Origin: Gemmatimonadota bacterium
GTDB lineage: Bacteria > Gemmatimonadota > Gemmatimonadetes > Palauibacterales > Palauibacteraceae
DNA length: 64,000 bases
Reading direction: 5' to 3'
NCBI GenBank assembly: GCA_039588275.1
Contig: JBDHAC010000005.1
Span: forward strand, 1-64,000
Shown: positions 53,920 through 63,356 of the stretch, in pieces
Layout: every line of letters starts with the position of its first letter
How positions within the stretch are numbered: the stretch's first letter is position 1
The notes under the pieces: generated by a model
Database searches by the model: none
The model's input: only the letters and a program-made list of their open reading frames with translations
Told to the model about the DNA's origin: nothing
Translations under genes and position numbers: made by a program

Positions 53920-53942
53920 GCCTCTTCAGGTTAGGCTTCTTC
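53911..53942. repeat. 15-bp tandem duplication carrying the stop codons of two convergent genes
   Basis: TCAGGTTAGGCCTCT (53911-53925) and TCAGGTTAGGCTTCT (53926-53940). Confidence 0.8.
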
Positions 53943-54743
53943 GAAGGCGAAGGCTCCGTAGCCCACTACCCGGTCCTTCGGTCCAGCCGTATCACCCGAG
54001 TTCCGCAAGTCCAGAGTCCGCACCCTGAGCCCTCGCTCGGCGGCAAGACCCAGCAGGCCCTGGACGGCTACTGCACCGCAAGCTTGGGTCGGGCCGATGT
54101 CCTGCGGGCGCAGCGCCTCGATCGCGCTTGCCGTGGCTCGGTCCTCCCGGCGGGCGGAATCGTAGTCCAGATAGTGACTCAGATCCGAGCTCACGACGAT
54201 CGAAGTCTCGGGCCCGCCCCACAGGAGACGTAGCGCCGTTTCGACATCAGCCGGCTCCGCGTCTCCGACCACGAGCGGGACGAGACGGAACGCCGAGAAG
54301 CTGCGCTGCAGGAAGGGGAGATGGACCTCCAGCGAGTGCTCGGGCTCGTGCGCCTCGTCGCGCTCCCGCACGCAGGGCAGGGAGAGAGCTCGTCCCACGG
54401 CCTCACGGTCCACCTCCACCAGCCCGAGCGGGGTCTCGAACGCGTCCGCGCCCGATGCGGCGAGCCCGCGGAAGGGCACCCGGTGGGCGGGGCCGACGAG
54501 GATGACCCGCTCGACGTCCTCTCCTGCCTCCTCGAGCCAGCGATACGCGGTCGCCGCGATCGGTCCCGAGTAGATGTATCCGGCGTGGGGTGCTACCACC
54601 GCTTTGTGCCACCCCGGCGCTTTTCCGGGACCGGTCGTCGCGTGCGGGACGGCTGCATCGAGGAGCGACGTCACCGTCTCACCCAGTGCATCTCGATCTG
54701 CGGGATAGAAGTAACCCGCAACGGCCGGGCGGCGAATCTTCAT
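53931..54743 (-). CDS. amrB: AmmeMemoRadiSam system protein B (Memo family)
   Basis: RRPAVAGYFYP, APHAGYIYSG, EHSLEVHLPFLQ, SSDLSHY, ACG, NSGD...VVGYGA. Confidence 0.95.
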   Translation of the reverse strand: MKIRRPAVAGYFYPADRDALGETVTSLLDAAVPHATTGPGKAPGWHKAVVAPHAGYIYSGPIAATAYRWLEEAGEDVERVILVGPAHRVPFRGLAASGADAFETPLGLVEVDREAVGRALSLPCVRERDEAHEPEHSLEVHLPFLQRSFSAFRLVPLVVGDAEPADVETALRLLWGGPETSIVVSSDLSHYLDYDSARREDRATASAIEALRPQDIGPTQACGAVAVQGLLGLAAERGLRVRTLDLRNSGDTAGPKDRVVGYGAFAFEEA

Positions 54744-54762
54744 CGTTCAATCCCTTGCATCC

Positions 54763-55860
54763 TCAGGCGGCGTAGGTCGCGAGCCGCACCGGCAAGCGCC
54801 TCGCGCCCCATCCGCCTGGCTTTGGCTCGAACAGGCCCGGGCATCTACTGCCGCAGCGGCTACACAGCCCGTCGCCCGTGAGATTCCATTCGGACAGCAC
54901 GTACCAATCGCGCCCGATGAGGCGCTCCCCGCACCCGTGGCAGTACGTGCTCTGCGTCTCGAGGTCGTGCACGTTCCCGGTGTAGACGTGCCGCAGCCCG
55001 TTCGCGAGGCCGATCCGCCGCGCTCGACGCAGCGTGTCGGGAGGTGTCCGCGGTCGGTCTCGCATCTTCCAGTCGGGGTGGAACGCGGTGAAGTGGAGCG
55101 GGACATCCGGTCCCAGGTGCTCGGCGATCCACGCGGTTTCCCCCTCGATCTCGCCGTCCGAATCGTTCTCCCCCGGGATGAGAAGCGTCGTGATCTCGAA
55201 CCACACGTCAGTCTCGTGCCGCAGGTGGCGAAGCGTGTCAAGGACGGGCTCGAGCTCGCCCCCGCACACCTTCCGGTAGAACGTGTCGCTGAACGCCTTC
55301 AGGTCCACGTTGGCGGCATCCATGTGCCGGTAGAACTCCGCGCGCGGCCCGGGAGACTGGTACCCGGCCGTGACGGCGACCGAGCGGATACCACGCTCGC
55401 GGCATGCCCGGGCTACATCGATCGCGTACTCGTGGAAGATGATTGGGTCGTTGTAGGTAAACGCCACGCTGCGACACCCGAGACGCTCGGCGGCCCGAGC
55501 GATGGTCTCGGGCGACGCCGCATCGGCCAGCGTGTCCATCTCGCGCGACTTCGAGATGTCCCAGTTCTGACAGTACCGGCAAGCGAGGAGGCATCCGGCC
55601 GTCCCGAACGAGAGCACCGGTGTGCCCGGCAGAAAGTGGTTGAGCGGCTTCTTCTCGATCGGGTCCACGCAATAGCCGCTGGAGCGGCCGTACGTGGTCA
55701 GGACGATTTGATCGCCGGCGTTGGCGCGGACGAAGCAGAACCCGCGCTGTCCGTCGCGCAGCCGGCACTCGCGGGGGCAAATGTCGCACTGGACGCGTCC
55801 GTCTTCCAGCCGGTGCCAGTGCCGCGTCGGGTGTCCCTCCAGCGCGTCGGCGACTTTCAT
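54763..55860 (-). CDS. amrS: AmmeMemoRadiSam system radical SAM enzyme
   Basis: CDICPREC...GFCFVR, DPIEKKPLNHF, CLLACRYCQNWDISK (CxxxCxxC), VYTGNV, C-terminal CxxC...CxxC. Confidence 0.95.
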   Translation of the reverse strand: MKVADALEGHPTRHWHRLEDGRVQCDICPRECRLRDGQRGFCFVRANAGDQIVLTTYGRSSGYCVDPIEKKPLNHFLPGTPVLSFGTAGCLLACRYCQNWDISKSREMDTLADAASPETIARAAERLGCRSVAFTYNDPIIFHEYAIDVARACRERGIRSVAVTAGYQSPGPRAEFYRHMDAANVDLKAFSDTFYRKVCGGELEPVLDTLRHLRHETDVWFEITTLLIPGENDSDGEIEGETAWIAEHLGPDVPLHFTAFHPDWKMRDRPRTPPDTLRRARRIGLANGLRHVYTGNVHDLETQSTYCHGCGERLIGRDWYVLSEWNLTGDGLCSRCGSRCPGLFEPKPGGWGARRLPVRLATYAA

Positions 55861-56828
55861 GCGTCCGCAGCCCGGTTGAGGACCCTGAAGAGCCGGAGGT
55901 GTGACTGCCGCTCATCCAGCCTCCGGAGACCGAGGTCGCCCGCGATCTCCCGCGCCTGACGGAACTCGGCGGCGGAGAGACGCCGGCACAGCTCCGGGTA
56001 CCGGTCCTCGCTCACCGCGCCGGCCGGCGAGTACTGGTCCATGAGGTTCACGTACGTCCCCGGTCCCAATTCCCGGGCGATCCACTCCAGAATCGCCCGC
56101 GTCTCGTCTAGCTCGCCGGGCATGACGAGGTGCCGCAGGAGTACGCCTCGCCGCGCGAGCCCGTCGGCATCGATGACGAGATCCCCGACCTGGCGGTGCA
56201 TCTCCGCGATCGCGGCACGTGCCGCGTCCGGATAATCCTCGGCCTTCAGGTATTTCCGGCTCTTGTCCGCGCTCCAGTACTTGAAGTCCGGCATGTAGAT
56301 GTCGACGACCCCGTCCATGAAGGCCAGGCTTTCGAGGGCGTCGTACGCGCTCGTGTTGTAGACGATGGGAAGCTCGAGCCCGTCCTCCACCGCCTTCGCG
56401 ATTGCCTCGAGCACCTGAGGTACGACGTGCTCGGGGGTCACGAAGTTGACGTTATGGCACCCGAGCCTTTGTAGCTCCAACATCATGGCCGCGATCTCGT
56501 GCGCCTTGGCCTCGCGATCGGATCGGCCGGGCTTGATCGCCTGGCTGATGTCCCAGTTCTGACAGAAGGCACACCGCAGATTGCAGTGCGAGAAGAAGAT
56601 GGTGCCCGACCCGTTCCACCCCCGCAGGCAATCCTCTTCGCCCAAGTGCGGGAAGCAACTGCTCACGACCGCGTGGCGACCGGTCTTGCATGCCGCCCAC
56701 TTGTCCTCGAGCCTGTTCACACCGCAATCGCGCGGGCACGCGCGGCAATCCGCCAGGCTGGCGACGGCGCGCTCGGCCCGCAGCTGAAGCTCGCGGCGAG
56801 ATAGGCTCAGGTACGCCGCACGAACCAC
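55857..56828 (-). CDS. PflX-like radical SAM protein (putative pyruvate-formate lyase activating enzyme family)
   Basis: CRACPRDCGVNR, HLGEE, GSGTIFFSHCNLRCAFCQN, NFVTPEH, DIYMPDFKY, RHLVMPG, NLMDQY; ATGA overlap with amrS. Confidence 0.9.
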   Translation of the reverse strand: MVRAAYLSLSRRELQLRAERAVASLADCRACPRDCGVNRLEDKWAACKTGRHAVVSSCFPHLGEEDCLRGWNGSGTIFFSHCNLRCAFCQNWDISQAIKPGRSDREAKAHEIAAMMLELQRLGCHNVNFVTPEHVVPQVLEAIAKAVEDGLELPIVYNTSAYDALESLAFMDGVVDIYMPDFKYWSADKSRKYLKAEDYPDAARAAIAEMHRQVGDLVIDADGLARRGVLLRHLVMPGELDETRAILEWIARELGPGTYVNLMDQYSPAGAVSEDRYPELCRRLSAAEFRQAREIAGDLGLRRLDERQSHLRLFRVLNRAADA

Positions 56829-56987
56829 GGGGCCTCCGATCCTGCCATATTGACCTTCCCCGAAATGTACGCGCGGACCGGGGCTTTCGCCCCAGCCTCG
56901 TGTCTCGGATGCGTCAAGATGTAAGATTCAGCTCATTCGTGGCATCCATACGCTGGTGAGGGATGGTGTGGGTGCCGACTCGAACCG

Positions 56988-57536
56988 GTGGGAGTGTCGG
57001 CAGGCAATGGCGTGAAACCCGAAGCTACCAGGCCCGAGGTCCTGACGCGGGCGGGTCGCGGTGACCGCGACGCGCTGACGCAACTGTATCAAGAGTACGC
57101 GGAGGGGGTGTACGAGGCTGCCTTTCACCTCACGGAATCCGCCGCCGACGCTCAGGATGTCGTGCAGGAGGTGTTCTTGGGGCTGCCGGAGGCACTGCGG
57201 ACGTACGAGGGACGCGGCAGCTTCGGTTCCTGGCTGCGGACGGTGACGGTGCGGACGGCGTTGATCAAGCTTCGCCAGCGTCGGCGGCTGAGGGAGATAT
57301 CGCTTGGCTTCAATCGGACCGGACTATCGCTCGCGCCCGCGGGCCATATCGATCGTATCGAGCTGGAGAGGGCGCTGAGCGCGCTCCCAGAGAAGCTGAG
57401 GATCGTGGTCGTTCTCAAGGAGATTCAGGGTTTCTCGCACAGGGAGATCGCCGGCCTGCTGGGGATTCGACCCTCGGCGTCGGCCGCGCGGCTTTCGAGG
57501 GCGAGAGAGCAGCTCCGGGAGCACCTCAACACCTGA
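56988..57536 (+). CDS. ECF sigma-70 factor
   Basis: Region 2 DAQDVVQEVFL...FGSWLRTV; region 4 LPEKLRIVVVLKEIQGFSHREIAGLLG...RLSRAR. Start could be GTG 57012. Confidence 0.93.
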   Translation: MGVSAGNGVKPEATRPEVLTRAGRGDRDALTQLYQEYAEGVYEAAFHLTESAADAQDVVQEVFLGLPEALRTYEGRGSFGSWLRTVTVRTALIKLRQRRRLREISLGFNRTGLSLAPAGHIDRIELERALSALPEKLRIVVVLKEIQGFSHREIAGLLGIRPSASAARLSRAREQLREHLNT

Positions 57537-57537
57537 G

Positions 57538-57735
57538 ATGGTGCTTCGTCGCTGGCACCCGGACCTGGAGACGCTTCACGATCTCGTCGAGGGAGCGGTC
57601 GCGGACGGCCTCCGAGGACGCGTCGAGCGTCACGTGGAGAGCTGCGGCGAGTGCCAGCGCGAAGTGGGGATGAGACAGGATGCCAGGACAGGGCTCGAGA
57701 ATATCGCGCGTCTGCGCGCGAGGTTGAGAGGATAG
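57538..57735 (+). CDS. Stand-alone zf-HC2 (ZAS) anti-sigma domain protein, 65 aa
   Basis: Starts 1 nt after the sigma stop; H...HVESCGEC (HxxxCxxC); no TM. Confidence 0.72.
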   Translation: MVLRRWHPDLETLHDLVEGAVADGLRGRVERHVESCGECQREVGMRQDARTGLENIARLRARLRG

Positions 57736-57740
57736 CGGGG

Positions 57741-59885
57741 ATGCGGGTACGTAGACATCCGAGCCACCAAACGCTCAGCTGCTACATCGACGAAGAGCTG
57801 ACGGAAGCTCGACACAGCGAGGTGGATGAACACCTCGAGGGCTGCCTGAGATGTCGGCGTGAAGTCGACTTCATGGCCGAGGTGCAGCGCGGACTGCGTG
57901 AGATCGCGAAGCCGCGCCCGCCCCGGGACGTCCTGGAGCACATCCTCGAGCGCCGAGAAGCGGGCGAACGGATCATCCTGCCGACCGCGTGGGCGAGCCC
58001 GCGGAGACTCAAGCCCGCGGTGCCCGCGGTCACAGCGGTCGCCGCGGCCCTGTTCGCGGCCGCGGTGGGGCTCATGCTCCTCGACAGCCGCGAGGCCGCT
58101 GCCGGCGCCAGCGGCATGGAGTTCTCGCCCTCCAACCTGGCTTACACCCACGAAATCGAGATCGAGTACCGAACTGCGGGTGCACTGGCGGGTGAGCCGA
58201 AGCTCCGGGTGCGCGGTCGCTACCTGACGGCCGATGACGACATCCGGTTTGGCGCGGGCGGGTCCTTCGTGTCCGCCGATCTGTGGCCTGGTGAGGACGG
58301 GACCTTTCAAGGAACCCTCCGTCTGCCCGGTTCCGCGGTGTACGCTCAGTTCGCGGTGGAGGACGAAGACGGCGAGTACGTGGATCACAACGGTTACCTG
58401 TCGTGGGACCTCGTGGCCGAGTACGAGGATGGTCGACCCAAGTTCGAGGCGTTGTGGCAGCGCGCCAGAGCCTTCCAGGAGAGAGACCGGCAAGAGGCGT
58501 ACGAGTCGATCAAGCGGCTGACAGAGCTGTACCCGGACCGCGTGGAAGGGTGGTCGGCGCGGTACGGGTACGAGAGGGCCGCGATCGCGTCCGTGCTCAC
58601 GCGACCGCTCGAGAGCCGGCACCGCTCGAAGTTCGCCGGGTTCCTCGAGCAGGCGTCGAGAGGTGCGTTGTCCGCCACGGAGCTGGGTGCCCTCGTCGAC
58701 TACGCCCGCCGTTTGGGCGACCGCCCTGCGGTCGAGATGGTGGCCAGCGAGCTGCAGCGGCTTTACCCGAGCGATCCGATCGCCGTTGGCGAGCGCGTCG
58801 TGCGTCTGCGGGAATCGCTGCGGGGCGAACCCCAGGCCATGCTCCGCGAGCTCGAGCGCGAGTGGGAGCGTGTGGGGCCGACGCAGCCCCTGCTCGTTGA
58901 AGACGCATATGAGGCGGCCACGAAGACCCGTGATCCCGCGGCGATCCGGCAGTGGACCGACCGCCTCGTGGCGCTAGAACCCAGCCGAACGCCGATCATT
59001 GCTCGCGACCTCGAGGGAATCCCTTCCGTGCGCCCGTACGTGGCCGAACTGATCAGGGTCGAGCTCAGGCGGCTCGAAGAGGCCCCGGAGATCAGTCGCC
59101 CGCTGCACCTCGGCGTGAGCGAGTACCGTGATGAGAACCGGCGCCTGCGCCACGACCTCTTGGCGAGGCTGGGTCGGATGCTGGTAGCCGAAGGAAGGGT
59201 GGAGGCCGGAGTCGACACATTGCTGCTGGCGGCCGAGACCGGCTGGGATCCCGAGCTGTTTGCTGAGCTCGGCGCGCTATCCGCATCCCGCGGTGACGTG
59301 ACGACGGCACGCCGCTACTCTGCGTTGGCGGCCGTCGATCCGCTAATAGAGCATACAGAGCTGGAAGCTCTGCATGCGCGGGGCGACAGACTTACCACGG
59401 AGAGTTCTTGGGAGGAGGCGCTCGAGGCAGCAAGAGAGGAGCAAAAGGATCGACTGTACGAGGGCGACATCAATCGGAGGTTGCCCGACGGTATCGTTCT
59501 CAGAGACCAAGGCAGAGCCGTACGACAATTCGAATCCTTGCTCGGAGAGGGGGCCACAATCGTCCTTCTGTGGTCACGGTGGGAGCGGAGGACCATCGAG
59601 GTCTCCAGGAAGTTGGGGGAGTATCGTGACCGGCTCGCTCCGGCGGGGGTGGAGATCCTCGCGATCACCCGGGACCCGGATGCTGAGGGAGCGTTGAACG
59701 GCTGGAGGGAGTTAAACGTTGACCTTCCGGCTTACCTAGACCCCCGGGGGCGGGCGACGGCCGCCATGGGTTCTTTCGCGTTCCCGGATCTGTTGGTGCT
59801 GGACGCTGGTGGGCGGGTCCGATTCGCGGACAGAGACGCCGACGGAGCGGCGCGCGCCGCTCTGACATTGGCCGGAGCAAGGTAG
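57741..59885 (+). CDS. Membrane anti-sigma factor: zf-HC2 - TM - Ig-like/helical (TPR-like) region - C-terminal TlpA/AhpC-like thioredoxin fold without CxxC
   Basis: ATG 57741; HLEGCLRC; TM AVTAVAAALFAAAVGLMLL; C-terminal TIVLLWSRW...GVEILAIT...YLDP...FPDLLVLDAGGRVRF. Confidence 0.85.
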   Translation: MRVRRHPSHQTLSCYIDEELTEARHSEVDEHLEGCLRCRREVDFMAEVQRGLREIAKPRPPRDVLEHILERREAGERIILPTAWASPRRLKPAVPAVTAVAAALFAAAVGLMLLDSREAAAGASGMEFSPSNLAYTHEIEIEYRTAGALAGEPKLRVRGRYLTADDDIRFGAGGSFVSADLWPGEDGTFQGTLRLPGSAVYAQFAVEDEDGEYVDHNGYLSWDLVAEYEDGRPKFEALWQRARAFQERDRQEAYESIKRLTELYPDRVEGWSARYGYERAAIASVLTRPLESRHRSKFAGFLEQASRGALSATELGALVDYARRLGDRPAVEMVASELQRLYPSDPIAVGERVVRLRESLRGEPQAMLRELEREWERVGPTQPLLVEDAYEAATKTRDPAAIRQWTDRLVALEPSRTPIIARDLEGIPSVRPYVAELIRVELRRLEEAPEISRPLHLGVSEYRDENRRLRHDLLARLGRMLVAEGRVEAGVDTLLLAAETGWDPELFAELGALSASRGDVTTARRYSALAAVDPLIEHTELEALHARGDRLTTESSWEEALEAAREEQKDRLYEGDINRRLPDGIVLRDQGRAVRQFESLLGEGATIVLLWSRWERRTIEVSRKLGEYRDRLAPAGVEILAITRDPDAEGALNGWRELNVDLPAYLDPRGRATAAMGSFAFPDLLVLDAGGRVRFADRDADGAARAALTLAGAR

Positions 59886-60107
59886 CCGGCGGCGGCTCGA
59901 TCCGGCCGCCATAGGCTCGAAGAGCAAACCACCCAGGTACGCAATAAGAAGGGGCGTGCTCACCGGTCGGGTGGCCTTGGGCGCACCCCCCTCCGCTTTT
60001 CCTGGCAGTTCGTAAAACAGTAGACATCACAGGCCATCCGCACCCGGACAGGGGCTTCGCCCTGGCCTCGGGTGCGGGATCTTCACGCGCTTCCAAGAGG
60101 AGGAATC

Positions 60108-60308
60108 ATGGATTCCAAGCGCATCTCCCGATTCACGAGTGCGACGCTGCTGGCCGCGGGCTTCTCGCTGATTCCCGTCACGATCTCCAGTTCCGGCGAG
60201 CTGGAGGAAGCCGCCGTGTGCGCGAATCAGGGACAGTGCACCTTCGAACTGGGGTCGTGGTGCGACGACAACTTCGACTACTACGATAAGCCAGTGGTCG
60301 TCGACTGA
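60108..60308 (+). CDS. Small secreted Cys-containing peptide (66 aa)
   Basis: Strong SD GAGGAGG before ATG 60108; basic N-terminus and hydrophobic stretch, then ELEEAAVCANQGQCTFELGSWCDDNFDYYDKPVVVD. Confidence 0.75.
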   Translation: MDSKRISRFTSATLLAAGFSLIPVTISSSGELEEAAVCANQGQCTFELGSWCDDNFDYYDKPVVVD

Positions 60309-60358
60309 TCCGAGCGCGAGACGATTCCAAGAAGCTCGAGACGAAAGGACTCGAAGCC

Positions 60359-61483
60359 ATGTTCAAGCGATTCGGGAAAGCGCTCGCGCTCCTGGTGACC
60401 CCCTTTATCGTCTTCCTGGGCTCGACGGGCCTCGGCTCGTGGGCCATCGCGTCGGACGAACGCTCCCCTTCGAGCGAAGAGGTGTCGATCCTGGACCTCC
60501 AGGGCGCGGTGCATCACCAAGGTGAGCACCTCGGGATGCCCGTAGGGTTGGCGGTGTTCGGCAACACGCTGGTCGCGATCGACCGCTTCGCGGAGCGCAG
60601 CGTCCACGTCGTCGATCTCGGCACGGGGAAGCTCCGCGGATCGGTCGGACGGGAAGGGGAAGGGCCGGGCGAGTTCAGGGCTGTGTACTCGATCGATCGC
60701 GTGGCGAACAGCGATGAACTGTGGGTGTTCGATGCCGGAACGCAGCGTCTGACGCGCCTGGACCTCGCGGCGCTCGACTCCGACGGCGGCTGGGCGAAGG
60801 AGTTCGTCAGCTTGCGGGGGAGTGCACGCGTGATGAACCCGGTCCGAACAGCTGAGGACAACGTCCTGGCCGTCGGCCTCTTCACCGAGGGTCGGTTCGG
60901 CGTCTTCAATCAGAACGGTGAGCAAGTCGACGCGCTCGGTAGCCTGCCTGAGTGGTCAGAGCCCATCCCGCCGGGAGTGCTCCAACACGCGTTTACCGGG
61001 ACGATCAAGGCCGACCCGGACCGTCAGCGGTTCGCCGTCGGAGCACGCCACGCCGGCTTGCTGGAGATCTTCGACGCGTCCGGTCGGCGGCTCGCCCGGG
61101 CCGAGGTCCCCGTGGAGTTCGAGCCGCGATTCACCGTCAACGTGCGTGATGACCGCATCTCGATGGGGAGCGGTGAGGACCTGAGGTTCGGCTACGTCGA
61201 CGTGGCTACGACGCACGACCGTGTCTACGGCCTCTTCTCGGGGCGGGTGCGCGGCGAGTACCCGAAGAGCGCCAACTTTGCGCGCGAAATCCATGTGTTC
61301 GATTGGACCGGTCGGCTAGAGTCGATTATCCACCTCGACGCGGACATAATCGCGATCGCGGTGGACGAATGGGACGATAACCTGTACGCGATCGGTCACG
61401 ACCCGCTCCCAGCGATCCTGAAGTACGAGCTGCGGGACGCGGGCGGATCTCGGGCCGTGGGCTCCATCGCGATGCGTGACTGA
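60359..61483 (+). CDS. BF3164-like / TolB-like six-bladed beta-propeller protein, exported
   Basis: N-terminal signal/TM; GREGEGPGEF, FGYVDVATTHDRVYGLFSG, IHVFDWTG, IAVDE...LYAI. Confidence 0.85.
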   Translation: MFKRFGKALALLVTPFIVFLGSTGLGSWAIASDERSPSSEEVSILDLQGAVHHQGEHLGMPVGLAVFGNTLVAIDRFAERSVHVVDLGTGKLRGSVGREGEGPGEFRAVYSIDRVANSDELWVFDAGTQRLTRLDLAALDSDGGWAKEFVSLRGSARVMNPVRTAEDNVLAVGLFTEGRFGVFNQNGEQVDALGSLPEWSEPIPPGVLQHAFTGTIKADPDRQRFAVGARHAGLLEIFDASGRRLARAEVPVEFEPRFTVNVRDDRISMGSGEDLRFGYVDVATTHDRVYGLFSGRVRGEYPKSANFAREIHVFDWTGRLESIIHLDADIIAIAVDEWDDNLYAIGHDPLPAILKYELRDAGGSRAVGSIAMRD

Positions 61484-61549
61484 CGGGCTGACGCGGCTTG
61501 GCCGCGGCCGGCGTGCGACGCCGATTGAAAACCCGCTCCCGAGGCGCGA

Positions 61550-62560
61550 TCAGGAGTTCGCGGGTTCGGTGGTTACTGTAACCGAGCCCGCCTCGGAATC
61601 GGCGACGGCGGAAGCTCGCGACACCGCGGGGCGGTGTCGGGCGGCTCGCCTCTGCGACCGCTGAACGAGTATCACCGCAATAGTGATTATCGCCATCGCC
61701 ACGAACGTGCGCTGGGTGAGGGGCTCCGAAGCCAACGCCCAACCCAGGACGACGGCCACCACAGGGTTCACGTACGCGTACGTACCAACCAACGCCGGTC
61801 GCACGGCGCGGAGTAGCCATATGTAGGCCGAGAACGCCACGAGCGAGCCGAACACGATGAGATAGGCCAGCGCGGCGACCGATTTCAGGGACACGGCCGC
61901 CAGCTCGATCTGCCCGAACTCGCCCCGAAAACCCCCCGTCAACAAGAGCAGGCCGCCGCCGCAGAGCATCGTCAACGACGTGGCGTACAGCTGCGGGCTC
62001 GGGAAGGTCGCGCTTCGGCTGTAAATGGACCCGGCCGCCCAGGACACAGAGGCGATCAGCACCGCCACCGCGCCGAGCACGAACGAGCGTGGGTCGGCGC
62101 CCACGTTGCGCAGCACCTCGGGCGACGGCGCCAGGAGCAGAGCCACACCGCCCAGCCCGAGCCCCAGGCCCGCGATCTCGCCTCCGCTGGGCCGCTCTCC
62201 GTCGGGCCCGAGCCACGCCATCAACACCAGCCACAGCGGCGCGGTCGCGACGAGGAGCGCCGCCAGACCGGATGGCACGAATTGCTCTGCCCAGCTCAGG
62301 AGCCCGTTTCCACCCAAGAGCATGAGACCGCCGGATATCGTGGCGGCCTTCCAATGCCCCCCGGCCGGCATCTCGCTTCCCCGCAACCGGAACCAGGTGA
62401 ACAGGACCCCGCCAGCCACGAGGAATCGAATCCCGGCCATCGAGAACGGTGGGATCGTCTCGATCGCGAAACGGATCGACAGGTAGGTCGATCCCCAGAT
62501 CACGTAGACCAGCCCGAGAGCCAGCAACACGCGTGCGGGTGACGCGTCCCGGGGACTCAT
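61550..62560 (-). CDS. EamA/DMT family transporter (YedA-like)
   Basis: ATG 62560; VYVIWGSTYL, PPFSMAGIRF, GGNG...AEQ.VPSG, FGSLVAFSAY, YAYVNPVVAV. Confidence 0.92.
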   Translation of the reverse strand: MSPRDASPARVLLALGLVYVIWGSTYLSIRFAIETIPPFSMAGIRFLVAGGVLFTWFRLRGSEMPAGGHWKAATISGGLMLLGGNGLLSWAEQFVPSGLAALLVATAPLWLVLMAWLGPDGERPSGGEIAGLGLGLGGVALLLAPSPEVLRNVGADPRSFVLGAVAVLIASVSWAAGSIYSRSATFPSPQLYATSLTMLCGGGLLLLTGGFRGEFGQIELAAVSLKSVAALAYLIVFGSLVAFSAYIWLLRAVRPALVGTYAYVNPVVAVVLGWALASEPLTQRTFVAMAIITIAVILVQRSQRRAARHRPAVSRASAVADSEAGSVTVTTEPANS

Positions 62561-62696: not shown

Positions 62697-63356
62697 CTAC
62701 TCGGCCTCGAAGCCCACCGAGAAATGCGAGCCGTCGCAGAACGGCTTGTTCTCCGAAGCCCCGCAGCGGCACAGCGCGGCGTTGCGCACAGGGATCCGGG
62801 TCGCGCCATCCGCGCTCCGAAGCTCGGCCCGCCCGTCGAGGAGAAGCGAGCCATTCGGGAGCGGCCGGATCTTCAACGGGCCCTCAGCCGGCTCGTTCGA
62901 CGTCGAGCCACTGCCCTCGGCGTCGAGATCCCCCGCGTCCCGGAAGCCGAGCTCGACGTGGTTGTTGTCGCAGAACGGTTTGCGCTCCGATGCCCCACAG
63001 CGGCACAGAGCCGCGCGGATCTCGCGGCTCGGGGCCCCAGGGCCCGCGATCTCCAGCTCGAGGTCTCCCCAGGCGTACAGAGGGCCATTGGGGACGAGGG
63101 TAAGCGCGTTGCTCGGCGGTGGCGTCTCGCCCGGGCCACCATCCGAGCGCTCGAACTGAAGGGCACCGGTCGGGCAGCGACCCACGACGGCAGCGATCTC
63201 GTCGGCCGTGGCACCACGTGGGTCCACCCATGGCCGGCGGTGAGCGTCGAACACCCCCGGCAAACCGTGAACACATTCCTCCGCATGGATGCAGCGCCGG
63301 GGCTCGAACCGCACGACGATGCCGTCGCCCTCGTACTCACGAACCTTCGGCTTCAT
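62697..63356 (-). CDS. Fe-S protein: YjdI-like (Fer4_19) domain plus two CDGSH iron-sulfur domains
   Basis: GGAGG SD, ATG 63356; CIHAEECV...RPWV...CPTGAL; LCRCGAS.RKPFCDNNH and LCRCGASENKPFCDGSH. Confidence 0.92.
   Translation of the reverse strand: MKPKVREYEGDGIVVRFEPRRCIHAEECVHGLPGVFDAHRRPWVDPRGATADEIAAVVGRCPTGALQFERSDGGPGETPPPSNALTLVPNGPLYAWGDLELEIAGPGAPSREIRAALCRCGASERKPFCDNNHVELGFRDAGDLDAEGSGSTSNEPAEGPLKIRPLPNGSLLLDGRAELRSADGATRIPVRNAALCRCGASENKPFCDGSHFSVGFEAE

Follow-up and report, generated by a model that had tools for sequence, protein, structure and literature searches.

A conserved Gemmatimonadota operon joins an extracytoplasmic function sigma factor and its membrane zinc-binding anti-sigma factor with a three-cysteine peptide and a six-bladed propeller

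In the RpoE-RseA-RseB system of Escherichia coli, a periplasmic accessory protein encoded in the operon restrains proteolysis of the anti-sigma factor, whose site-1 protease is DegS. In Bacteroidota, small peptides of the NVEALA family (PF14055) are encoded beside propellers of the BF3164/TolB_like type. Signal peptidase is the site-1 protease of RsiV in Bacillus subtilis (PMC6066255) and of RsiP in Bacillus thuringiensis (PMC8844934), and DdvA of Myxococcus xanthus becomes a substrate of RseP when it lacks its ectodomain (PMC11506125). Here we describe a locus at positions 56988-61483 (+ strand) of a 64,000-nt stretch of DNA, called the window below (contig JBDHAC010000005.1, assembly GCA_039588275.1), from a Gemmatimonadota bacterium whose genome is referred to as G000. 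In this locus, an extracytoplasmic function (ECF) sigma factor, a membrane anti-sigma factor with a zinc-associated anti-sigma (ZAS) domain, a three-cysteine peptide and a beta-propeller are encoded as a conserved unit. The locus contains five intact open reading frames (ORFs) in the same orientation, confirming the gene arrangement given in a preliminary description of this DNA:

56988..57536, + strand: ECF sigma factor with sigma2 and sigma4 only (Pfam Sigma70_r2 and r4_2 and NCBIfam sigma70-ECF, over cut-off)
57538..57735, + strand: free soluble ZAS protein of 65 aa (zf-HC2, 23.1 bits against a cut-off of 22.2)
57741..59885, + strand: anti-sigma factor of 714 aa (zf-HC2, one membrane helix, an all-beta domain, a helical region resembling tetratricopeptide repeats (TPR) and a ResA/TlpA fold)
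60108..60308, + strand: 66-aa peptide with a Sec-like N-terminus and C38, C44 and C52 conserved in alignments, predicted to be exported
60359..61483, + strand: six-bladed NHL-like beta-propeller with an N-terminal signal or anchor and no cysteine (PF15869 TolB_like, 75 bits against a cut-off of 29.2)

The sigma factor is 182 aa long when started from the GTG at 56988, and a codon-score caller favours the GTG at 57012. The five genes have a GC content, overall and at third codon positions, near the genome values. Compared with the same-genus genome G001, they are all under purifying selection, with ratios of nonsynonymous to synonymous substitution (dN/dS) of 0.09 for the sigma factor, 0.26 for the free ZAS protein, 0.22 for the anti-sigma factor, 0.18 for the peptide and 0.19 for the propeller (first 234 codons only), at dS values of 0.45-0.71, indicating that both small ORFs are coding. 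The peptide gene has a strong ribosome-binding site and is present in a single copy in the genome. The zf-HC2 matches of the 65-aa protein and of the anti-sigma N-terminus are just above the cut-off. In the same genus, frameshifting deletions were observed in the propeller gene of G001 (L021:8990-9060) and within the anti-sigma zinc motif of G002, where the free ZAS gene is also eroded (L022:6174-6260), each reflecting either decay or an assembly error.

To what extent this arrangement is shared was judged from relatives of the anti-sigma factor, of which a HMMER search among 50%-identity cluster representatives gave 374 at E<=1e-30. The factor occurs in 42/401 genomes of the phylum and in 61/114 of the window's family, which atlas taxa and source names place in Gemmatimonadota, and sigma orthologues stand beside it across this family (45-58% identity). 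Seventy ZAS-type places reach the C-terminal part of the protein; three at a contig edge were omitted and the other 67 were counted by hand from coordinates. A propeller gene lies on the same strand within about 1.6 kb downstream at 56 of these 67 family places, and 11 are without it. In the loci read, the peptide gene stands between those of the anti-sigma factor and the propeller (it is broken in G294), and G338, which belongs to another family, has the order anti-sigma, propeller, peptide. Seven sigma-linked loci of other families contain neither peptide nor propeller (G407, G309, G277, G268, G415, G132 and G422). The sigma factor, the membrane ZAS anti-sigma factor, the three-cysteine peptide and the propeller are thus a conserved unit of Gemmatimonadota, and the linkage proposed in the preliminary description is found across genera. 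Several genomes (G293, G153, G261 and G401) contain paralogous units, tandem and dispersed, each with its own divergent peptide. In G153, G444 and G293 (L059, L063 and L101), two or three units, complete or partial, stand in tandem, again with divergent peptides.

A predicted promoter of a type that precedes the homologous sigma genes was found ahead of the unit:

56918..56949, + strand: predicted autoregulated ECF promoter (-35 TGTAAG at 56920-56925, -10 GCATC at 56942-56946), with the motif also upstream of homologous sigma genes

The motif reads TGTAAG-[AG]TT-N13-GCATC (TGTAAG-N16-GCATC). The site in the window scores 28.4 bits with a matrix built without the window's genus, and leave-one-out scores reach at least 15 bits in 18/30 sigma upstream regions, while the 17 other ECF upstream regions of the genome score at most 2.7 bits. 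Fifteen sites above 16 bits are present in the genome, all of them intergenic according to the gene caller, and ten column-shuffled matrices give 0-3. The exact pattern occurs in 10/16 searched genomes that have a ZAS-type anti-sigma factor versus 1/25 of those that do not, these genomes being kin and not independent, and the reversed pattern, used as a control, gave 0. No separate ECF promoter was found ahead of the peptide in 23 peptide upstream regions (best score -1.1 bits), and neither an intrinsic terminator nor a sigma-70 promoter was found across 56800-61700. In genus g16 the peptide starts 30-45 nt past the anti-sigma stop, so that one transcript is likely for the unit. The sigma factor, the anti-sigma factor, the peptide and the propeller are therefore likely to be co-transcribed from one sigma-type promoter, as judged by these motif data, which support the induction of peptide and propeller by the sigma factor that had been proposed. 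The motif recurs elsewhere in the genome:

G000, C57:1446+, C39:10852+, C65:18786+, C1:15328+, C1:15312-, C1:9367-, C1:3018-, C3:76562-, C9:88010+, C12:62314-, C76:12046-, C51:7461+, C51:14750+ and C43:736-: the promoter motif at fourteen more intergenic sites (16.7-41 bits), which precede genes of mixed kinds

Two of these copies point outward from one C1 intergenic region. A conserved regulon was sought by comparing 20 promoter loci from 8 relatives with the 14 own sites, and few cross-genus matches were found, namely an operon for an efflux-type membrane fusion protein (G002 and G022), a 107-130-aa protein (G000, G002 and G009) and one further pair. The own targets comprise a VanY peptidase, a nuclease, LamG and TonB-C proteins and a hydrolase-caspase operon. 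Because the targets are mixed and little shared between genera, they do not reveal the signal. Unlike the peptide-propeller linkage, the other promoter targets are barely common between genera. The hydrolase-caspase operon (L124:13973-18187, G000:C1:15473-19690) stands behind one promoter site and encodes a protein with a weak alpha/beta-hydrolase match, a caspase domain (Peptidase_C14), an HTH-tipped protein and then several uncharacterised helical proteins; it resembles a caspase-linked conflict system.

The peptide matches no Pfam family. It had been likened to the NVEALA type, and it proved not to be a PF14055 member, as nothing in the genome matches this family at E<=1 and none of 11 peptides does at E<=10; an atlas match of the peptide to an NVEALA cluster (0.80) is at lead level only. 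A lipoprotein was considered and rejected, the first cysteine lying about 15 residues past the hydrophobic stretch, without a lipobox. All 37 mature cassette peptides (37/37) carry an odd number of cysteines, 3 or 5, when cysteines in the N-terminal signal region of three of them are left out of the count. The propeller of this operon and the anti-sigma ectodomain offer no cysteine partner. From the odd count and the cysteine-less propeller one spare thiol is predicted, and therefore a peptide dimer, a bound metal or a free thiol. The propeller gene starts 50 nt past that of the peptide, and its product is the only PF15869 match in the genome. The propeller model has a predicted TM-score (pTM) of 0.90, and its best structural matches are NHL six-bladed propellers, among which a PAL-type amidating lyase ranks 11. 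As the preliminary description stated, the locus holds no modifying enzyme and no exporter: no gene for a multinuclear non-heme iron-dependent oxidase (MNIO, DUF692) or DUF2063 protein occurs at this locus or at the homologous loci read, the rest of the genome not having been searched for these, and no exporter or outer-membrane route dedicated to the peptide was found in the locus.

In the reading of the preliminary description, a predicted exported peptide encoded behind a predicted autoregulated promoter could be an autoinducer, which would bind the ectodomain and cause the anti-sigma factor to be cleaved in a positive feedback, the propeller maturing, presenting or scavenging it. Ligand-triggered cleavage by signal peptidase is indeed known for RsiV (PMC6066255), and the peptides of paralogous units diverge while their cysteine frame is kept. 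However, the peptides are under purifying selection (dN/dS 0.16-0.52 in 9 pairs) with no sign of diversifying selection, the locus lacks a dedicated route out of the cell, and units without a peptide persist, so that we regard an autoinducer as unlikely.

Related propellers also occur without such a sigma factor. In 15 loci of this kind that were read, a small Cys-rich ORF adjoins the propeller in 8, of which 4 have a DsbA gene next to the pair and 1 a signal peptidase (S26) gene; several peptides of these sigma-free loci have even cysteine counts. One sigma-free locus (L106:5752-8392, G323) codes for a propeller and two peptides with seven Cys each, along with an exported protein of 131 aa and a signal peptidase I of its own. 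In genus g16, the propeller gene is often followed immediately by a conserved gene for a 99-aa protein without a Pfam family, which closes the cassette (L101:7895-8191 and its equivalents in L037, L058, L064 and L103). Since each module occurs alone, the peptide and the propeller might be output only, that is, an effector pair under sigma control (for instance one that buffers thiols or metals, or a secreted antagonist together with a protein that binds it), and the anti-sigma factor would then read something else through its TPR and thioredoxin surfaces, for example misfolded or mis-oxidised envelope proteins. The single spare cysteine could bind metal, and Sec-exported Cys peptides that are under sigma control and buffer copper exist, namely the bufferins controlled by SigF/NrsF (PMC11626156). 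Nevertheless, the linkage is far tighter here than for any other promoter target, the paralogous units retain private peptides, and the locus has no MNIO or DUF2063 gene. A pure output role is thus conceivable for the pair, and rather doubtful, and the same holds for the sensing of another cue that it entails.

The anti-sigma factor was modelled with AlphaFold from a 130-sequence alignment (predicted local distance difference test, pLDDT, 91.6; pTM 0.81), and the following parts were distinguished:

57741..57965, + strand: cytoplasmic ZAS domain with ligands H6, H31, C35 and C38
58020..58106, + strand: membrane helix (about residues 94-114) and predicted signal peptidase I site, with the cut after A119-A120-A121 and before G122
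58113..59456, + strand: ectodomain, made of an all-beta domain (residues 125-227) and a TPR-like solenoid (residues 235-572), from the secondary structure of the model
59469..59885, + strand: ResA/TlpA-type thioredoxin fold without active-site cysteines and with the cis-Pro kept (structure match and motif)

In the model, the ZAS domain is helical, a helix runs from residue 102 to 114, and the last domain is of alpha/beta type. The zinc ligands are invariant in the alignment and kept in 137-138/150 homologues. With its N-terminal H-x3-C-x2-C, its one membrane helix and the adjoining sigma gene, the protein has the features of class I ZAS anti-sigma factors. Structures found by Foldseek for the solenoid are OGT TPR and consensus TPR proteins (E about 4e-5) and, for the last domain, ResA/TlpA; the Pfam TPR_6 match is below cut-off, and the solenoid is TPR-like by its fold. 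The fold of the all-beta domain was not matched by any structure listed in the search with the full-length model.

A small-x-small motif ([AVLISTG]-x-[ASG], then non-proline) follows the helix in 145/148 homologues that cover the position. In the exact register, [AVL]-x-A is present in 124/148, versus 0-38 at 13 neighbouring offsets, and the conserved columns S124 and L126 give the register an independent anchor. The eight other ZAS-membrane anti-sigma factors of the genome, judged by eye, show no such uniform motif. The genome encodes RseP and two signal peptidases I. The conserved site suggests an activation like that of RsiV, in which cleavage at this position would be regulated. In relatives of the ectodomain that have no ZAS domain, a normal N-terminal signal or lipoprotein peptide lies at about the place of this register. 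They raise another explanation, in which the ZAS domain was fused to an ordinary secreted protein of TPR and thioredoxin type and the signal peptide of the latter is cut constitutively; the released ectodomain would be a periplasmic chaperone of the peptide, and control of the sigma factor would lie with the ZAS stub, with the state of zinc or thiols, or with the load on secretion. The model, without any protective helix, would agree with this, and the free ZAS protein of this lineage could restrain a leaky sigma factor. But a stub without ectodomain is a substrate of RseP in DdvA (PMC11506125), so that the sigma factor would be permanently on, and the conserved ZAS domain argues otherwise; constitutive cleavage therefore appears quite improbable to us, and so does each of these modes of control.

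The thioredoxin fold extends to the last residue of the protein, and the VIA structure search matches it to ResA (2f9s, Z 17.8, rmsd 2.2 over 135 residues). The CxxC position is occupied by E615-R-R-T618, both cysteines being absent. In the best 150 homologues the first cysteine (C615) is found in 91/150 and the second in 12/150, and the cis-proline P682 in 127/150. Thus, the "redox-dead" thioredoxin of the preliminary description holds for the copy of the window and not as a general trait. A thiol-disulfide oxidoreductase of the TlpA/ResA type was rejected, since the fold and the cis-proline are present and the CxxC is not. Among the loci read, the cysteines are missing in 29/30 peptide-linked anti-sigma factors (the exception is G338), the peptide-free sigma-linked ones are mixed (8 with Cys, 6 without), and the ZAS-less relatives with a covered C-terminus all keep a cysteine, nine of them with a full CxxC. 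Other redoxin and propeller genes often surround those of ZAS-less relatives that are lipoproteins or secreted and have an intact CxxC (L073-L080 and L049). A quick tree of 59 anti-sigma relatives had an unresolved backbone and long-branch warnings, and no order of events was drawn from it.

Taken together, autoregulation and a proteolysis of the anti-sigma factor initiated by signal peptidase appear probable from the motifs. More tentatively, and as a whole model that is plausible while falling somewhat short of probable, we propose that the sigma factor transcribes its own operon, that signal peptidase frees it, and that the peptide and the propeller act as a feedback brake on the anti-sigma factor. 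This places export, cleavage, binding and a sign of the loop, all of which we infer, on the observed genes, conservation, motifs and folds. In the resting state, the ZAS domain would hold the sigma factor, as in other members of its class, the free ZAS protein adding a cytoplasmic buffer here, and the cleavage site would be kept closed by the large ectodomain with its beta, TPR and thioredoxin-fold parts, probably together with the peptide bound to the propeller. Consumption of the peptide, or its oxidation or metal binding at the spare cysteine, would let signal peptidase I clip off the ectodomain, whereupon RseP would cut the membrane stub, by analogy with RsiV, RsiP and DdvA and given the motif and the proteases present. 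The freed sigma factor would transcribe from TGTAAG-N16-GCATC promoters its own operon, restoring peptide and propeller, and about 14 lineage-specific targets. The cysteine-less thioredoxin fold may be a binding surface inherited from a thiol-oxidoreductase partner that stand-alone cassettes encode separately. On this view, a single lineage brought together two modules in the operon: an autoregulated ECF/ZAS switch and a cassette of peptide and propeller that is of older origin. We favour a brake, since no other promoter target is nearly as tightly linked and since paralogous units keep their own peptides; private divergent peptides are as expected of matched ligand-sensor pairs.

A more specific form of this proposal is possible, and we give it a modest chance: a self-contained peptide-ligand ECF circuit of the periplasm, in which a Sec-exported disulfide mini-protein with a spare thiol, held by the propeller, would be read by a dead thioredoxin/TPR receptor that gates the signal peptidase cut. 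It is with similar doubt that we regard, in the same reading, the ZAS domain as having been fused to the oxidoreductase partner of a phylum-wide cassette, and the paralogous units as orthogonal peptide-sensor channels.

Several observations weigh against the proposed model. The 11/67 family places and the 7 loci of other families without peptide and propeller indicate that the sensor can work alone, and the existence of peptide-propeller pairs without the sensor that these pairs have a job of their own. The single circuit of the preliminary description is thus retained as a linked unit and not as an indivisible one, the sigma-anti-sigma pair and the peptide-propeller pair being two separable modules that are coupled. 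The correlation with cysteine loss follows clades and is weak and not independent, because the peptide-linked copies come from one family, G338 has both cysteine and peptide, and six peptide-free copies lack the cysteine. No RsiV-like protective amphipathic helix (DUF4179) is found by Pfam, and the model shows a coil followed by a strand from residue 125; without such a shield, the site could be a constitutive relic of the fusion. Single members are broken in relatives (the propeller in G001, the anti-sigma ZAS domain in G002 and the peptide in G294). Finally, the gap between the anti-sigma and peptide genes is 222 nt here and contains GC-rich hairpins, a point softened by their folding no better than shuffled sequence (z -1.08).

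The free ZAS protein, which the preliminary description had counted among the components, is an addition of this lineage and not a core part, as it was found in 3/72 sigma-anti-sigma pairs (pairs with both ends listed, counted by hand), namely in G000, in G001 and at G312:C6, the latter being dissimilar and about 100 aa long. A remnant is present in G002, and the search gave only three other close relatives of similar length. All four zinc ligands are kept (H7, H32, C36 and C39), and the protein shares 31% identity over 54 aa with the anti-sigma N-terminus. By its sequence, it is likely a second, cytoplasmic anti-sigma factor derived from a partial duplication.

Next to the locus lie a radical SAM gene, which is on the other strand, and a gene for an EamA transporter. 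Upstream and divergent, three co-oriented genes at 53931-56828 (minus strand) encode two radical SAM proteins, one of them with a PF04055 match (55857-56828), and a 270-aa protein; AmmeMemoRadiSam A/B and PflX-like may be fitting names in this group. This trio is common to same-genus loci only and therefore lies outside the conserved unit. On the minus strand at 62697-63356, a Cys-rich protein of about 219 aa is encoded, which, from its motifs, is presumably a (4Fe-4S)-binding plus CDGSH iron-sulfur protein.

Pairs of a small Cys peptide and a six-bladed propeller are frequent in Gemmatimonadota and also in Bacteroidota; we found no paper that assigns them a function. The operon provides a ready read-out with which the role of such a pair can be directly tested, as its promoter is defined, a cleavage site is predicted and the unit of four genes can be transferred to a laboratory host. 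Should the use of the site prove to be regulated, anti-sigma proteolysis initiated by signal peptidase would extend from Bacillota to a diderm phylum, and paralogous units could give orthogonal peptide-controlled switches.

Compared with known systems, the locus shares with the NVEALA/BF3164 pairs a small exported Cys peptide beside a PF15869 propeller, and differs from them in that its peptide is not of PF14055. The logic proposed for the peptide and the propeller is that of RseB, without homology of the parts beyond the sigma factor. No paper describing the system was found in the literature, most subscription papers lying outside the scope of the search, in line with the preliminary statement that no described system with this set of parts was known. 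The words Gemmatimonad, redoxin and propeller do not occur in the main text of the ECF classification (PMC7826278), and TGTAAG does not occur in the searched part of its supplement. In that part, Gemmatimonadetes are named for ECF19, 25, 41, 56 and 248 only, and a word search and comparison by description gave no group with a matching context or promoter. The closest description is ECF231, with a zinc-binding single-pass anti-sigma factor, periplasmic helical repeats and the -35 box TGTAACCTT, which differs by HEAT repeats, another -10 box and adhesin neighbours. ECF284 has an anti-sigma factor with AhpC/TSA homology, as here, but is restricted to Actinobacteria and has two helices and another promoter; ECF25 includes Gemmatimonadetes and has a single-pass anti-sigma factor at +1 (PMC7826278).

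The bufferins under SigF/NrsF (ECF16) are likewise small, Cys-rich, Sec-exported and ECF-controlled peptides, but they need MNIO and DUF2063 proteins and have 4 or 6 cysteines (PMC11626156), whereas the locus has no such enzyme, an odd cysteine count and a propeller. A bufferin-type cluster for a ribosomally synthesized and post-translationally modified peptide was rejected, as no MNIO (DUF692) or DUF2063 gene stands beside the precursor. NrsF is a multi-pass membrane protein (PMC7826278), in contrast to the single-helix anti-sigma factor of the window. RsiV and RsiP also have a signal peptidase motif after the anti-sigma helix, and in RsiP a separate sensor protein starts the cascade, but they belong to Gram-positive hosts, have small ectodomains and respond to lysozyme or beta-lactams, and the cleavage is here predicted from sequence (PMC6066255, PMC8844934). 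The site of RsiV is shielded by amphipathic helices (PMC6066255), of which the model of the window's anti-sigma factor has none.

The nearest studied architecture is that of DdvA, with its ZAS domain, helix, TPR region and disabled enzyme fold. DdvS-DdvA likewise combines an ECF sigma factor that has its own promoter with a ZAS domain of about 70 residues, a single helix and an unusually large periplasmic TPR region, at whose end stands an enzyme fold lacking part of its active site, and the release by RseP proposed here is that of DdvA (PMC11506125). DdvA differs by its zinc site (CHCC versus HHCC in the window) and by ending in a caspase-like CHAT domain proposed to cut itself, where a thioredoxin fold and a signal peptidase site after the helix are found here; DdvS controls CBASS (cyclic oligonucleotide-based antiphage signalling) and CRISPR-Cas, and no conserved defence regulon was found here (PMC11506125). 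Membership in a DdvA-like class was rejected, the C-terminal domain being of the ResA/TlpA fold and not CHAT. The operon, which we did not find described in print, is real and conserved, and it belongs to signalling through an ECF sigma factor and a class I anti-sigma factor, to which it adds a peptide and a propeller.

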